Shown here: in pieces, positions 2,781 to 17,646 of the stretch
Layout: every line of letters begins with the position of its first letter
Numbering within the stretch: the stretch's first letter is position 1
NCBI GenBank assembly: GCA_964554805.1
Contig: CAZKPX010000002.1
Span: 113,889 to 177,888 of the forward strand
DNA from: an uncultured Candidatus Saccharibacteria bacterium
Lineage (GTDB): Bacteria > Patescibacteriota > CAZHWT01
DNA: 64,000 bases
Direction: 5' to 3'
Position numbers and translations under genes: made by a program
Notes under the pieces: generated by a model
Database searches by the model: none
The model's input: only the letters and a program-made list of their open reading frames with translations
Told to the model about the DNA's origin: nothing

Positions 2781-4394
2781 TTAGGCTTCAGTTGTTGCGA
2801 CCTGTTTGGCAGGTAAGGAGCGAGACAGTATGAACATAACCAGTGCGGCGAAAGCTACTGCCAGCATCGTGATACGGAAAGCATTGGTGCGAGCCGTGTC
2901 GTACATCTGCAAGAGTTGATCGGCATTATCCGGAGTTAGTTCTGTCACAGCGGATCTTATTTGTTGATCGGAAACTACCTCTACGCCCTGCTCTATCTTC
3001 TGTTGGGCGCGTTGAGCAATGTCGGCAGGGATGTCCGTCTGCTGATTAAATTGTTGGGTTAAGCCAAGCGAAAGAGATAGCGTCAAGACAGTTCCCAGGA
3101 TGGCCACACCGACCGAGTTGCCAACCTGTTCGAGGGTGCTGGTTAGGCCAGAAGCTTCGGCTGTCTGATCCTGCCTGACGCTTGAGAGAATTAGGTTGAC
3201 AATCTGAGAGCCTATTAATCCGCTACCCAGACCCAAGATGCCTAAGCCCCAGCTTAGCTCAAAGGCTTTGGTGCTGGTGTTCATGGTCGACACCAAAACT
3301 AGGGCGCCCAATATCATAATGGATGATCCTACTTGAATAATGGTTTTGGGTAGGTACTTCTTGCCCGCTTTTACGCCAATCACAGCTCCTATAATTAGGA
3401 ATATGGACAACGGCAATAAGGCGATACCGGTATTGAAAGCGCTGATACCAAATGACACCTGCATAAATAAGGGAGCGGTGAAGAGGATGCCCGCTAGTAG
3501 TGACACCTGGATGGCTCTAACTTTAAGGCCATTAACGAAATCTCCGATTTTAAATAAAGCTAAGTGAATCAGAGTTGGGCGATTGTTGTGTACATTGCGA
3601 TTTTCAAGTCGTATAAATAGCATTAATAAAATAACTCCTAGGGCCAGCAACCAAACCGTTGGTGATAGGCCCAGGTTGAAGGGTGAGATTTCTACGCCAT
3701 TTATTTCAAACGGTTTCTTGGCAAAAAATAAGCCATAGTCAGAAATTAGTAATATACCGAGAACTAATGACATCATAGCGCTGGCTTGCAGGCCAGTACC
3801 GAGCATATCAATGTTAGTGCGCTGGGTGATGGTTTTGTCGCGAGGAATGAGGCCATGAAAAGCTAGGATGACTACAAGTGCAATAACCTCTAAGCGAAAA
3901 GCCCAGCGCCAGGAAAAGTAGGTGGTTAAAAAGCCGCCAATAATCGGGCCCATGGCAGCGCCGAGTGCATTGACACCGGCCATGGCTCCGTAGGCTTTGA
4001 CCCGGTCATTGCCTCCTAAATTGGCTCGAATAATGGTCTGAACATTTGGCAACATCAGAGCTGCTCCTAAGCCTTGGATGAGGCACCAACCTAGAATAAA
4101 GACGGTCAAGTTATTGCTTAAGGAAGCCAAGAGACTGCCCGAAATATATAACAAGACTCCTGTAATAAATGTTCTTTTCATGCCGATGATGTCGGCCAGT
4201 TTGCCACCAAACAACACAAAGGCGGCCATCATCAAGGCGTTGAGGGCGATAGCGCTCTGAACTCCTGATACGTTTGTGCCCAGATCCTCGACCAAGGCTT
4301 GAATGGACACATTCATAATGGTGTTATCCATCACCACCACGAAAGTGCCTAAGGCCATTATCAAGGTGAAGTAGGTTATTTTCTTCTTGTCCAT
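2781..4394 (-). CDS. MFS transporter, DHA2 (EmrB/QacA-like, 14 TM) drug:H+ antiporter family
   Basis: 537 aa; repeated hydrophobic helices; conserved GxLaDxxGrkr-type and LxxGxGxGxxxP motifs. Confidence 0.85.
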   Translation of the reverse strand: MDKKKITYFTLIMALGTFVVVMDNTIMNVSIQALVEDLGTNVSGVQSAIALNALMMAAFVLFGGKLADIIGMKRTFITGVLLYISGSLLASLSNNLTVFILGWCLIQGLGAALMLPNVQTIIRANLGGNDRVKAYGAMAGVNALGAAMGPIIGGFLTTYFSWRWAFRLEVIALVVILAFHGLIPRDKTITQRTNIDMLGTGLQASAMMSLVLGILLISDYGLFFAKKPFEINGVEISPFNLGLSPTVWLLALGVILLMLFIRLENRNVHNNRPTLIHLALFKIGDFVNGLKVRAIQVSLLAGILFTAPLFMQVSFGISAFNTGIALLPLSIFLIIGAVIGVKAGKKYLPKTIIQVGSSIMILGALVLVSTMNTSTKAFELSWGLGILGLGSGLIGSQIVNLILSSVRQDQTAEASGLTSTLEQVGNSVGVAILGTVLTLSLSLGLTQQFNQQTDIPADIAQRAQQKIEQGVEVVSDQQIRSAVTELTPDNADQLLQMYDTARTNAFRITMLAVAFAALVMFILSRSLPAKQVATTEA

Positions 4395-4497
4395 GCTATG
4401 CTCCTTTATTTATTTGGTGTGCAATTGATTGATTGCGTAAGCTATGCAGACGCGGATGTCCATTTAAATAATAGAGCACAGCCTAGTCAAGATGTTC

Positions 4498-4749
4498 CTA
4501 GATGCCTAGAATTTGTTTCTTCTTGGCGCCGAATTCTTCTTCACTGAGGATTCCTTGGTTTCTTAACTGAGCCAATTCCTGTAACTGCGCGGTCGTGTCG
4601 TCAACTGGTGCCGCCTGAGCTTGCTCTGCTTCGGCTTGCTGATTGTCGTTGGACCATCGGTTTTGTTGTCGTCGGCTAACTCGGTTTGATACCGCAGTGG
4701 CTGTGCCAGCGACTACTGCCGTTTTAGCCATTCCTCTTATAAGTCCCAT
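4498..4749 (-). CDS. SHOCT-domain protein
   Basis: C-terminal LRNQGILSEEEFGAKKKQILGI matches the SHOCT motif; aaggagg RBS. Confidence 0.6.
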   Translation of the reverse strand: MGLIRGMAKTAVVAGTATAVSNRVSRRQQNRWSNDNQQAEAEQAQAAPVDDTTAQLQELAQLRNQGILSEEEFGAKKKQILGI

Positions 4750-4786
4750 ATTATTACCTCCTTGCTATACTAATTAATTAGTGGTT

Positions 4787-5203
4787 CTATGCTTCTAATT
4801 CTGCGGCGGCTTCTGGATGAATTCTGCCTTCAGCTACTAATACACCATTGGCATCAATCAAAGCTTGTTTGAGGGGTTTAGCCCATAACTGCTCAATTAC
4901 GAGCAGTCCGGCTGCTGTATTGTTCTCCAGTAAGTCCGCCATTTCAGCGACATCGTCTTCATCTATTGGTTGGTCGTCGGATTGTGGGTATTTTTGAATA
5001 AATTCAATAGTTGGCCCATCTCCCAGATCCTCTATATCCATGGTTGTGGTTATACCCTGGTCATCTTTAGTGATTACTGTCAGTGCAATTAAGCCAATCA
5101 CCCCCTGGTCGAGAGCATCGCTTAATGTTTGCAGAATGCTGCCGTTAAATTTCTGACCTTCAAAACCGACTATAATGTAGTCTATTGGTCCTCTCATAGT
5201 CAC
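4787..5203 (-). CDS. Hypothetical acidic protein (DUF), co-transcribed with the SHOCT gene
   Basis: 138-aa ORF with strong RBS (aaggagg); no recognisable catalytic motif. Confidence 0.4.
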   Translation of the reverse strand: MTMRGPIDYIIVGFEGQKFNGSILQTLSDALDQGVIGLIALTVITKDDQGITTTMDIEDLGDGPTIEFIQKYPQSDDQPIDEDDVAEMADLLENNTAAGLLVIEQLWAKPLKQALIDANGVLVAEGRIHPEAAAELEA

Positions 5204-13478: not shown

Positions 13479-13575
13479 CGGGAGTGGGACGGAATGACTT
13501 TTGTAGGGGTGCTGGTAATTTACCGGCACCCTCCGTTTTATTTATAGGATAAGAATATATGAGAATACCACAACT

Positions 13576-13601
13576 ACCTCAAGACGAATCTTGAGGTAGT
13601 T
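13576..13601. terminator. Perfect 11-bp-stem hairpin ctacctcaaga-cgaa-tcttgaggtag; bidirectional terminator
   Basis: Read directly; lies immediately downstream of the nrdA stop (minus) and of the plus-strand ORFs. Confidence 0.55.
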
Positions 13602-13631: not shown

Positions 13632-15329
13632 CTAGGCTTCGCAAGCGCCGATGCACATTTTGGAGCGGTTGAAGTCTTGGGCAGCACTGGTGCTGTGTTG
13701 GTAGTAGAGAGACTTGACGCCGGATTCCCAGGCAAAGATCAGGAAGGCATTGACATCTTTGGCGGGAGTCTTGGGGTTGATCATTAAGTTTAATGACTGG
13801 GCCTGGTCAATGTAATTTTGACGCATTCCAGCCTGATCAATGATAGCAATCTGGTCTATTTCGCTAAAGGTCTTAAAGACTTCCTTCTCGTGGTCGGATA
13901 AGAAGTCGAGGTGTTGAACGCTACCATCTCGATCTCGGATAGAGTTCCATGTTTCTCGATCATTCTTGCCTTTTTCTTCAAGCAGCTTCTCAAGGTTTGG
14001 ATTCTTGATTGTCACTTTTACCTTGGCTAAATCTTTAACATAGCAGTTAGACCAAATAGGCTCAATGCTTTGAGATGTCTGGCCGATAATGAAGGCTGAT
14101 GAAGTGGTTGGTGCAACTGCTGTCAGTGTAGTATTGCGACGACCATAGCCTTTCAGCAAGCTTGGCTCACCGAATAGTTTGGCCAATTCTTTGGAAGCAT
14201 TCCAGGCGCGCTCGTTAATGGTCTTGAAGATTTTGCCGTTGAGGCTCTTGGCTTCTTTGCTATCAAAGGGCAGCATTTTTGACTGCAGATAAGAGTGCCA
14301 GCCAAGAACACCTAACCCTAAAGCTCGGTTTGAGACTGCAAAGTCATAGGCTCGCTTCATAAAGTAAAAGGCCCGAGTATATTCTGAGCTTTCACCGTCA
14401 CGCAGTTTTTCTAGCTTTTCGATGAAGTCAGTCATAACAGCATCTAGGAAATAAACCATGGTTTCAACGGCATCGGTATCTTTCCATTGGTCGAAATAAA
14501 GGACGTTCATTGAGGATAGATCGCAGACAAATGACCATTCGTCATTGGTTGGCAGCATGATCTCTGAGCAGAGATTGCTATGGCGGATTGTTAGATTATT
14601 ATCCTTATAGACATCAACCGTATTAGTGTTGACCGTGTCGGTAAACATAATGTACGGATAACCCATTTCTCCGCGACGCTGGATAACCTTGGCCCACGTA
14701 GCGCGCTTATCTTTGTCGCCTGCTACCATGGCTTTCATAAATTCGTCGGAAACGGTCACAGCGGTGGTCATGATTTGAATCTCATTACCTTCCGTGCCGA
14801 TTTCGAGGAATTCATGAATATCCGGATGATCAATTGGCAAGTAGGAAGCAAATGATCCTCGTCGGGTGGAGCCTTGACTGACTACGTTCAAGAGTGATTC
14901 AAACAATTGCATAAAATGAACTGAGCCAGAGGAAGTGCCATTGTCAGTAATTGGCGTACCACGACCACGAAGGTGGCCGAAGAACGCTCCGGTGCCGCCA
15001 CCATACTTACTCATCATGCCGACTTCTGATTGTGCATAAAGGATCTGAGCCATGCTATCGCCGATGTCGACAGAGAAGCAGCTGATTGGTAGCCCCCGAC
15101 CTAGGCCGTAGTTGGTCCAAATTGGAGTTGATAGCGAGTAAAAGCCTTTGGAGAGATAGGTGTAGAATTTTTCAGCAAAGCCTTCCATCTTCAATTTCTT
15201 TTCTGCTTCAACTGCAATCTCCCACATGCGTTCTTCAGGCGTGGTGTCGCCAACTAAGTAGCCGCGATTGAGAAATTTGCGACTATTGTCATTGAGCCAA
15301 TTAAAAGTAAGTTCGGGGCGGTCGTTCAT
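13632..15329 (-). CDS. nrdA: Ribonucleoside-diphosphate reductase alpha subunit (class I), short form without ATP-cone
   Basis: 565 aa; NLCSEI active-site motif, C-terminal ...CIGACEA redox tail; aaggag RBS; immediately downstream of nrdB. Confidence 0.85.
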   Translation of the reverse strand: MNDRPELTFNWLNDNSRKFLNRGYLVGDTTPEERMWEIAVEAEKKLKMEGFAEKFYTYLSKGFYSLSTPIWTNYGLGRGLPISCFSVDIGDSMAQILYAQSEVGMMSKYGGGTGAFFGHLRGRGTPITDNGTSSGSVHFMQLFESLLNVVSQGSTRRGSFASYLPIDHPDIHEFLEIGTEGNEIQIMTTAVTVSDEFMKAMVAGDKDKRATWAKVIQRRGEMGYPYIMFTDTVNTNTVDVYKDNNLTIRHSNLCSEIMLPTNDEWSFVCDLSSMNVLYFDQWKDTDAVETMVYFLDAVMTDFIEKLEKLRDGESSEYTRAFYFMKRAYDFAVSNRALGLGVLGWHSYLQSKMLPFDSKEAKSLNGKIFKTINERAWNASKELAKLFGEPSLLKGYGRRNTTLTAVAPTTSSAFIIGQTSQSIEPIWSNCYVKDLAKVKVTIKNPNLEKLLEEKGKNDRETWNSIRDRDGSVQHLDFLSDHEKEVFKTFSEIDQIAIIDQAGMRQNYIDQAQSLNLMINPKTPAKDVNAFLIFAWESGVKSLYYQHSTSAAQDFNRSKMCIGACEA

Positions 15330-15362
15330 GATACTCCTTGTAGTAGATTAATTAGGTGTCTC

Positions 15363-16654
15363 TTAGAAGAGATCTTCTTCGGTAATGCTTTTGCTGCGTT
15401 TGTTGTAATTGGTTGATCGTTTGACAAAGAAGTCGCCGTGTTTGGTGGTGATAACTTCGTCGTCGAACCAGTCGGTTTGAGCCAGTAGCTTTTGGTCAAC
15501 TGGCATGATGCGTTTGTAACCAATGCTATGCAAGGAATTGTTAAGGCGATTTTTAACGAATTCTTTCACTACAGCTTTGGGCATAAAGTCCAAGTCGCCT
15601 TTTTCGTAGATCCAATCGATGACCTGCTCCTCACCTTCATAGGCTAGCCTGCATGCGTCGTAGATCTCATCAGCCAGCTCATTATCAAACCAGTCTGGCT
15701 CTTCTTGGCGCAAGATGTTTACCAAATCGATGCCGAATAAGCCATGGATTTGCTCTTCTTTGGAGGTTGCTTCAATGGCATTGGAAATACCTTTAAATAT
15801 ATTTCTATGCTTATTAAAGGACATAATGATCAAAAACTGAGAGAAAAGTGATACGTGCTCAATAAATAGAGAGAATAAAATAATAGCTTTGGTGTAATCT
15901 CTATTTTCGCCAGAAGCAATCAGCTCAGTATGCATGGTTAAATAACGGATGCGATCTTTAATAACTGGCACTTCGACAACTTTTTCGAAGCCTTTGTTGA
16001 GGCCTAGAATCTCAATAAGATGTGAATAGGCATCGTGATGGCGAACTTCGCTTTCAGCAAAGGTATAACCAACTGCTCCGACCTCTGGCTTGGGCATTCT
16101 CTTAAAAATTTCACCCCAAAAGGTTTTAACGGCAACTTCTACCTGAGCGATGGCCAGCATGGCATTTTCAATAACTTGACGCTCAGCCTCATTGACATTA
16201 ACCTTAAAATCTTGAACGTCACTGGCGTAGTTGAATTCGGTATGAACCCAATAGGAGTGTCTAATGGCATCGACGTAGTCATTTAATTCGGGATATTCGT
16301 GAGGTTTGAGGTTGATGCGTTTTTTGAACAGGCTTCGCCGTCGTTCTTGATTTTTGTGTTCGCGATAAAGAATGTAGGCCTTGGCAACGCTGGTGAAGTC
16401 GCTGGTCATTAACACTTCTTCAACTATATCCTGAATTTCTTCTACAGTTGGGGTGTAAATCTCGCCTTTTTTCTTGGCACTGAATTTGATTTGACGATTG
16501 TCTAAAATTCTTTCAACTTTTTCTGCTATTTTGTCTGCGTCTTCCCGCTGGCCATGCTTAGTAGCCTTCATGGATTTGTAGACAGCATTGGCGATCTTTT
16601 TCTGACTATACTTAACGGTGGTGCCGTCTCGCTTTATAATATGGGCAAGAGCCA
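15363..16654 (-). CDS. nrdB: Ribonucleotide reductase beta (radical-generating) subunit with N-terminal ATP-cone domain
   Basis: N-terminus MALAHIIKRDGTTVKYSQKKIANAVYKSM...VEEIQDIVEEVL...VAKAYILYREHKNQ is an ATP-cone; ferritin-like core with ExxH motifs; C-terminal ...EEDLF tail; aggagg RBS before the ATG at 16654 (track ORF starts further upstream). Confidence 0.85.
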
Positions 16655-16690
16655 TGATGGTAGAATATCCTCCTATATATATTGTGTTCG

Positions 16691-16741
16691 ATGTACTGCA
16701 CTGTGTATTGCCAAGTTGGCGCAACTGCCCCTGCAGTACAT
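16691..16741. promoter_or_regulatory. Inverted repeat atgtactgcaC...(29 bp)...Gtgcagtacat in the nrdBA leader; candidate operator
   Basis: 10/11-bp inverted-repeat arms read directly, 40-90 bp upstream of the nrdB start. Confidence 0.25.
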
Positions 16742-17304
16742 GATTTGTCGTATGGCACTGTGTTAACTAGTCGCAATTTTTGACTAGTGCGGTGTGAGGT
16801 TTTGCTGGTGATCTAAATTCGGATTATGAGTAGTAGATTTGGATGGTTTTTGTAGTTTTAGGTACGTTATGAAACTTGTTGCTAAGTGATACAAAAACAC
16901 TATATATGGTGTGTAATATCCATGGTAGACCCAATATGTAGATGTGTCAATGCTTGCTTTTTGTGCAAAACCTGGATCATTTTGTGTCATAAAGACTGCC
17001 AAAAATGTTTATTTTTATATAAGCAAAAATCAAGACTGTTGTCTAAAATCAACATCATCTAATGGTTAGTTTTTAACTATTTTTTGATAGTCATAGTGTT
17101 ATGCAATACAATATTATATTATTGAGATGGTGCTGCGGCATGGTTCACATTTGCGTAATGATTGTTGATCCTGTGTGGGTGTTTAACGGTCTCGCAGGAG
17201 TAGCTGCAGTCAAAAAAATACAAGGTTTTAATAGGCGGTGAGCTACATACCAGCACAATCACTTTTAGGTATATACTAGGTTTAGTAAGGAATTAAACTC
17301 AAAG

Positions 17305-17646
17305 TTGGTAGTTATGACTTATATGACTCAGAAAGAAGCCAAAACTTACTCGATACTGGCGTCCTTGGCCATAGGGCTTTTGGTTTTGGGAACAATTTTC
17401 TATCACCTTATTGAGGGCTTCTCATGGGTTGATGCCTTTTACTTTAGTGTCATAACACTGACAACGGTTGGCTATGGAGACTTGTCGCCTCATACGGATG
17501 CAGGTAAATTATTTACATCAGGCTATGTGTTGTTTGGTGTCGGCATTATAACGACTTTTATCTCGGTCTTTTTAAAAAAAGAACGGCACAAGTTCCATGA
17601 GCGACATCTGAAGAAGCAGCAAGAAGAACCTAAAAGTAAGCGTTAG
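17305..17646 (+). CDS. Minimal 2-TM potassium channel (KcsA-like pore protein)
   Basis: Selectivity filter TTVGYGD between two hydrophobic helices; 113 aa. Confidence 0.75.
   Translation: MVVMTYMTQKEAKTYSILASLAIGLLVLGTIFYHLIEGFSWVDAFYFSVITLTTVGYGDLSPHTDAGKLFTSGYVLFGVGIITTFISVFLKKERHKFHERHLKKQQEEPKSKR

Follow-up and report, generated by a model that had tools for sequence, protein, structure and literature searches.

A class Id ribonucleotide reductase operon with the ATP-cone on NrdB in a Saccharibacteria-like genome

The nrdBA operon and its products

A stretch of 64,000 nucleotides from an uncultured Candidatus Saccharibacteria bacterium (assembly GCA_964554805.1, contig CAZKPX010000002.1), referred to here as the window, contains a two-gene operon for a class I ribonucleotide reductase (RNR) in which an ATP-cone is fused to the radical-generating subunit, NrdB (beta), and is absent from the catalytic subunit, NrdA (alpha). 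According to the open reading frame (ORF) listing of the window both genes are co-directional on the minus strand, nrdB first and then nrdA. The genes, the domains of NrdB and the elements adjoining them are the following:

16669..16674, minus strand: Shine-Dalgarno sequence of nrdB, AGGAGG, read from the sequence
15363..16655, minus strand: nrdB, coding for ATP-cone::NrdBi, the class Id radical-generating subunit of 430 residues (ORF and translation, PF03477 and PF00268, full-length match to 5OLK)
16350..16643, minus strand: ATP-cone domain of NrdB, residues 5-102 (PF03477)
15498..16319, minus strand: ferritin-like metal-binding core of NrdB, residues 113-386 (PF00268)
15366..15497, minus strand: C-terminal tail of NrdB, residues 387-430, ending in EEDLF, presumed NrdA-binding peptide
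15334..15339, minus strand: Shine-Dalgarno sequence of nrdA, AAGGAG, read from the sequence within the 33-nt nrdB-nrdA spacer
13632..15329, minus strand: nrdA, coding for the cone-less NrdAi, the class Id catalytic subunit of 565 residues (TIGR02510, PDB matches 6DQX and 6DQW, residues)
13573..13600, minus strand: hairpin with a 12-bp stem, 32 nt after the nrdA stop, with a weak U-tract, read from the sequence

The nrdB frame is uninterrupted between its ATG at 16655 and the TAA codon that closes it (15363-15365). The initial annotation had ended the gene at 16654, one base short, and the frame read from that position contains 18 stops. The ATG at 16655 was preferred to an upstream TTG at 16724 because the AGGAGG motif is found at 16674-16669 and homologues align from residue 1. 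The composition of the product is the one claimed in that annotation, an N-terminal ATP-cone followed by a ferritin-like domain: Pfam places PF03477 on residues 5-102, with 71.3 bits (cut-off 25.8; E 9.9e-20) and with positions 2-87 of the 88 in the profile covered, and Ribonuc_red_sm (PF00268) on residues 113-386 (194 bits), and the translation ends, as it had also noted, in EEDLF. This tail is strongly conserved (mean top-residue frequency of 0.81 in 74 full-length orthologues) and, as is general for class I enzymes, it is presumably the segment that binds NrdA. The equivalent segment is disordered in the 5OLK structure (PMC5794259).

Pfam finds only the Ribonuc_red_lgN and Ribonuc_red_lgC domains in the 565 residues of NrdA and no ATP-cone, in agreement with the first description of this gene. 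The frame of nrdA contains stops at 5 and 10 codons upstream of its ATG, so that a revision of the start codon cannot add a cone, and one hidden in an upstream extension of the gene is ruled out. NrdA keeps the catalytic motif NLCSE (252-256), C84, C269 and the tyrosine pair YY 542-543, together with the C-terminal cysteine pair C559/C563, the protein ending in MCIGACEA. The hairpin at 13573..13600 is probably the end of the operon, although a terminator scan did not flag it.

Class Id membership, genome context and distribution

NrdA matches the NCBIfam equivalog TIGR02510 (NrdE-prime) over residues 8-565 with 742 bits (cut-off 602) and falls far below the class Ia and class Ib models (99 against 813 and 164 against 750, respectively), and its best matches in the PDB are class Id alpha subunits, 6DQX (699 bits) and 6DQW (598 bits). 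The PDB ranking of NrdB is headed by 5OLK (567 bits), 6SF4 (496), 8DQ3 (383) and 6CWO (300), the next R2 protein outside class Id reaching at most 90 bits. 6SF4 is a cone-less construct of the NrdB of Leeuwenhoekiella blandensis, while 5OLK is the L. blandensis NrdB to which the window protein aligns over its full length, cone included (E 2.6e-169, about 60% identity overall).

The metal site leads to the same assignment. The class Id site has been described as having a glutamate as first ligand, a lysine from the loop of helix B, Trp177, and a tyrosine, Tyr207, that is held off the metals by Thr294 (PMC5794259, PMC6754362). From residue 106 on, the numbering of the window NrdB is that of the 5OLK chain, which corresponds to the numbering of the paper plus three. 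The residues E173, K177, W180, E203, H206, Y210, E266, T297, E301 and H304 are all present, and E173, K177, W180, E203, Y210, E266, T297 and H304 correspond to Glu170, Lys174, Trp177, Glu200, Tyr207, Glu263, Thr294 and His301 of L. blandensis. Taking profile scores, PDB ranking and residues together, the NrdA/NrdB sequences are clearly those of an orthologue of NrdAi/NrdBi, the class Id enzyme from L. blandensis. The initial description of the locus as a class I RNR operon with the cone on the radical-generating subunit, a design described for a subset of class I enzymes, is thus borne out, and can be made more precise as NrdAi/NrdBi of class Id.

This kind of enzyme is already characterised, and the window copy is a canonical and intact further member of it. 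With L. blandensis (5OLK, 6SF4/6SF5; PMC5794259, PMC6754362, PMC8350387) it shares the N-terminal ATP-cone, the short linker, the ferritin-like core and the disordered tail, the metal ligands, the Lys174 loop, Trp177, the Tyr207/Thr294 pair and the cone-cone interface, as well as a cone-less NrdA of similar length and the absence of NrdI. The host differs, an ultra-small Saccharibacteria-like bacterium as opposed to a flavobacterium. The class Id enzymes of Flavobacterium johnsoniae and Actinobacillus ureae (6CWO-6CWQ, 6DQW, 6DQX) belong to the same subclass, as seen in the alpha scores given above and in the match of the beta core to 6CWO, but their crystallised beta subunits have about 307-344 residues, align only with residues 106-430 of the window NrdB and hold no counterpart of the cone. 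Another member of the same subclass is the Grx::ATP-cone::NrdBi protein of Facklamia ignava (PMC6187632), in which the beta cone works as an on/off switch via beta4 and the cofactor is Mn(III)/Mn(IV), and whose nrdA also lies just downstream of nrdB. In F. ignava a glutaredoxin is fused to the protein, whereas thioredoxin and one glutaredoxin are encoded elsewhere in the window genome, and the cone of F. ignava, which binds a single ATP, has diverged further. The window copy has every canonical feature of a design whose structure and mechanism were published between 2018 and 2021, and it therefore adds little to RNR biology as such.

The genome in which it is found is a 1.4-Mb assembly of 25 contigs with a completeness rated at 100%. 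This genome contains one RNR alpha and one RNR beta subunit; neither a class III NrdD nor NrdI (PF07972) was found in it, and nrdBA is the only RNR detected. It was stated in 2018 that all species with a cone-bearing NrdB encode other RNRs too (PMC5794259), and L. blandensis itself also has a class II RNR, so that the presence here of class Id as the sole RNR contradicts that statement. Among the other Patescibacteria with the operon, two genomes (G041 and G043) have only a class Id alpha, and two (G042 and G002, the latter identical to G044 and a same-family relative of the window genome) have a second RNR. A class Id enzyme with the cone on beta can thus be the sole source of deoxynucleoside triphosphates in a minimal genome, which would imply that this Saccharibacteria-like host needs manganese and oxygen-derived oxidants in order to replicate.

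Relatives of the cone-bearing NrdB are encoded in 289 stretches of species-representative genomes from Patescibacteria, Bacillota, Mycoplasmatota, Bacteroidota, Spirochaetota and Thiotrichales, of which 80 (57-69% identical) were kept for comparison of the loci. ATP-cone and R2 domains are found together in 120 of the 120 best database clusters, and nrdA follows nrdB in 78 of the 80 loci, the two exceptions being short contigs. In an even sample of the phylum, cone-NrdB is present in 4 of 401 genomes (about 1%), the window genome included. The architecture had been called uncommon in the initial annotation, and this holds within the phylum, yet in absolute numbers it is frequent. In a quick tree the window NrdB forms a long branch, for which no sister is strongly supported, and the phyla are interleaved (Bacillota, Bacteroidota and Pseudomonadota); the patchy presence in the phylum together with this interleaving fits horizontal spread, for which no donor is named.

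Two layers of predicted control: NrdR and the ATP-cone

The absence of nrdR from the genome had been suggested as a point to check, and it does not hold: an ORF of 162 residues on contig 1 (G000:C1:236143-236631), unlinked to the nrd operon, contains a Zn_ribbon_NrdR domain (PF22811, E 6e-16) and an ATP-cone (PF03477, E 5e-22), and the nrdBA promoter carries a tandem NrdR operator, as predicted from its sequence. The elements upstream of nrdB are the following:

16945..16950, minus strand: -35 hexamer TTGACA of the nrdBA promoter (consensus scan; conserved in locus L090)
16929..16944, minus strand: NrdR box 1, core CTACATATTG, in the promoter spacer, C-N8-G palindrome 9/10 (conserved in L090)
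16922..16927, minus strand: -10 hexamer TACCAT (consensus scan; aligns with TAACAT in L090)
16897..16912, minus strand: NrdR box 2, ACACCATATATAGTGT, just after the -10 hexamer, 15/16 to the consensus (conserved in L090)
16691..16741, minus strand: leader hairpin with a 10-bp stem and the conserved loop start GGGGCAGTTG, read from the sequence (counterpart in L090)

The promoter matches the consensus at 10 of 12 positions, with a spacer of 17 nt, and the whole promoter-operator block aligns with that of L090, a relative whose NrdB is 86% identical. The boxes were scored against a 16-position NrdR-box consensus. In a genome-wide scored scan box 2 is the single best NrdR box of the 1.4-Mb genome, while a search of the whole window allowing 3 mismatches gave no more than chance (4 sites found, 2.65 expected). 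The cores of the boxes are 32 bp apart, and the pair overlaps the promoter, which makes of them a predicted NrdR operator with the classic layout. In Streptomyces coelicolor, whose NrdR is likewise composed of a Zn-ribbon and an ATP-cone, the operons controlled by this repressor (nrdAB and nrdRJ) also have two AT-rich palindromes, each flanked by G-C pairs that are conserved; they are separated by about three helical turns and overlap the promoter and transcription start (PMC9110341). The spacing there is 31 bp and not 32, and the window differs further in that its box 1 is degenerate outside the core and its nrdR is unlinked to the nrd operon. L. blandensis differs from the window operon, which carries an NrdR operator.

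Several other observations were made in the same region. A third NrdR-like half-palindrome, ACACAATATATATAGG (16672-16687, minus strand, 13/16), overlaps the ribosome-binding site of nrdB and may be due to chance; it was not counted, since 16 sites genome-wide score as well. The second-best pair of NrdR boxes in the genome (14/16 and 11-12/16, 31-33 bp apart) is located at L087:2684-2732 (= G000:C1:244183-244231), between two divergently oriented genes, one for a thioredoxin (L087 2346-2669, minus strand) and the other for a UvrD/PcrA-type helicase (2808-5111, plus strand), its sequence suggesting that the NrdR regulon may include the reductant of the RNR. The nrdB leader of about 260 nt gives only noise in Rfam at E <= 10, with no family and specifically no cobalamin riboswitch in 16500-17400, and the idea that it folds as one globally stable structure was discarded (z of -1.4; 20 of 200 shuffles fold as well). 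The leader hairpin is shared only by the window and L090, where its counterpart, at about 2920-2960, shows one compensatory change in the stem (G-C to A-T) and the 3' flank ACACAGTG is conserved.

The domain architecture, the subclass membership, the conservation of the metal site and of the cone interface, and the operon layout are computed directly. By analogy with L. blandensis and F. ignava, NrdA would reduce nucleoside diphosphates and carry the specificity site, and its C-terminal cysteine pair would be re-reduced by thioredoxin or glutaredoxin. NrdB would hold a dimanganese Mn(III)/Mn(IV) oxidant, with no radical stored on the conserved tyrosine, and this oxidant would be assembled without NrdI, probably from superoxide or else from hydrogen peroxide. 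The N-terminal ATP-cone is proposed as the switch of overall activity: with ATP on the cone, the beta dimer would form the active alpha2beta2 complex, whereas with deoxyadenosine triphosphate (dATP) the cones would pair to give beta4 tetramers, by which alpha would be caught in alpha2beta4 or alpha4beta4 complexes that are inactive, a mechanism established in orthologues (PMC5794259, PMC6187632, PMC6754362, PMC8350387). A second layer of dATP sensing would act at transcription, with NrdR predicted to bind the tandem boxes over the nrdBA promoter. Two separate ATP-cones would then sense dATP in this genome, one at the promoter (NrdR) and the other at the enzyme (NrdB). We consider this account as a whole, that is, a two-gene nrdB-nrdA operon for an aerobic class Id RNR with the cone on NrdB as activity switch and NrdR as second layer, to be very probable.

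The dATP-induced cone-cone (beta4) interface of 5OLK is made by Asp73, Asp76, Met80, Lys89, Ile92, Ile93 and Arg95 (PMC5794259). In the alignment to 5OLK these seven residues correspond to D76, E79, M83, K92, I95, L96 and R98 of the window NrdB, five of them identical and two conservatively replaced. The alignment is continuous over the whole cone, with about 43% identity, and unlike the L. blandensis protein the window cone contains an insertion of 7 residues. The cone is kept in 74 of the 74 full-length orthologues, from several phyla, and two of its motifs, KR(D)G at the start and the helix VAKAYIxYR, are near-invariant in them. Conservation of the cone as a whole is lower than that of the core, with mean identities to the window protein of 0.42 and 0.68, respectively.

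This lower identity and the insertion could be taken as signs that the cone is a degenerate relic, a profile match that neither binds nucleotides nor switches the enzyme, in which case activity would be controlled only by the specificity site and by NrdR. Non-functional cones exist in other RNRs. The relic explanation seems nevertheless improbable, given the strong Pfam score (71 bits against 25.8), the near-invariance of the two motifs and the retention of the interface residues; moreover, the presence of the cone in every full-length relative recovered argues for selection.

It is also conceivable, though we regard it as a slight possibility, that the cone, though functional, departs in its action from the L. 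blandensis model, with another nucleotide stoichiometry, as in F. ignava, or through another inhibited oligomer. The cones of F. ignava and L. blandensis are 28% identical and differ in the number of ATP molecules bound (PMC6187632), and the divergence of the window cone from that of L. blandensis leaves room for such differences; against this, the 5OLK alignment spans the whole cone, and each residue at the beta4 interface is either kept or exchanged for a similar one. The notion that the fusion is artefactual, nrdB having been joined by mis-assembly or by a frameshift to a separate cone gene (an nrdR fragment, for example), found no support and can be dismissed as next to impossible, being refuted by the uninterrupted ORF, by the recurrence of the architecture in the 120 database clusters and, among the 80 kept loci, in 79 (the remaining one is truncated by a contig end), and by the dissimilarity of this cone to that of the NrdR of the same genome (21% identity over 43 residues, E 0.017). 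The same low identity rules out that the NrdB cone is a recent copy of the NrdR cone, and indicates that the cone came with the gene and not by a local shuffling of domains.

Some points weigh against the proposed activity switch with NrdR as its second layer. The dATP response, the beta4 state and the manganese cofactor are all carried over from orthologues whose identity is about 60% overall and about 43% in the cone; the insertion in the cone is a departure from 5OLK; and F. ignava shows that cones of the NrdBi subclass vary in the number of ATP molecules that they bind (PMC6187632). On the side of transcription, the match of NrdR box 1 is poor beyond the core (11/16), and of the features by which the boxes were recognised PMC9110341 backs only the spacing and the conserved G-C pairs. 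Lastly, the claim of a sole RNR rests on an assembly in 25 contigs.

Variation among relatives and a flavoprotein lead

In the three closest relatives (loci L088, L089 and L090, with NrdB 85-86% identical) a gene for a PNPOx_N protein of 135 residues, a flavin mononucleotide-binding split-barrel, lies directly upstream of nrdB. Two of these genes are placed as follows:

L088:2554-2961, directly upstream of nrdB: PNPOx_N gene
L090:2417-2824, directly upstream of nrdB: PNPOx_N gene

The NrdR operator of the window aligns with the one that precedes the PNPOx_N gene in L090, and two database clusters, the only ones of this kind (P0010 and P0012), contain PNPOx_N::ATP-cone::NrdB fusions. It might be thought that the class Id operon of this lineage originally included the PNPOx-like flavoprotein, which, if it supplied superoxide to the dimanganese site, would be an NrdI-like activase, and that the window genome is a loss variant; we find this doubtful. 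Were it true, the PNPOx-like protein would be the class Id activase that the literature describes as not found, and the window genome would be running its only RNR without it. No PNPOx homologue was found in the window genome by tblastn, and a decayed copy in the 650-bp gap upstream of nrdB was rejected, as tblastn gave no trace of it there or genome-wide. A general link between PNPOx and this NrdB is ruled out, since the gene is near nrdB in none of the 80 genomic loci, a homologue is found in none of the 3 further genomes with cone-NrdB in the phylum sample (400 genomes besides that of the window), and only two clusters are fused; the tally of PNPOx homologues across that sample includes an unpublished genome, G157, on which no claim rests.

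Loss of the C-terminal cysteine pair of NrdA is seen in a clade of Patescibacteria: among 77 related loci whose NrdA C-terminus could be scored, 20 are without the pair, and it is also missing in one further locus that is cut at a contig end; the window NrdA, which keeps C559/C563, falls outside this tail-less variant. In the tail-less clade a conserved, structured leader of about 200 nt precedes nrdB, with an invariant TCGGAGGTAAGACACAC and nested long-range stems, and has no match in Rfam. A covariance model built from 10 loci (R1) finds it in 18:

L049:5776-5967, L064:3392-3602, L080:5763-5963 and 15 further loci, plus strand: structured leader (covariance model R1)

Every locus with this leader and a scorable NrdA has an NrdA without the cysteine pair, and model R1 gives no match in the window at E <= 1. 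A different leader is found at L091, whose NrdB is 77% identical to that of the window: here a class Id nrdBA operon is preceded by a cobalamin riboswitch (RF00174, 98 bits) at L091:2613-2837, and upstream of this, in the same leader, by a pair of sites resembling NrdR boxes.

The nrdB frames of six loci from metagenome-assembled genomes (L044, L046, L051, L052, L055 and L058) contain in-frame stops under table 11, and the NrdA of L055 has a stop where relatives carry a glycine (..CH*CEA compared with ..CSGCEA), hints in these sequences that a stop codon may be recoded in the genomes concerned. In Paenibacillus pini (L081:7245-8998) the best NrdA match begins at query residue 254, 1.7 kb downstream of nrdB, which suggests that nrdA is either split or interrupted by an insertion, such as an intein or another gene.

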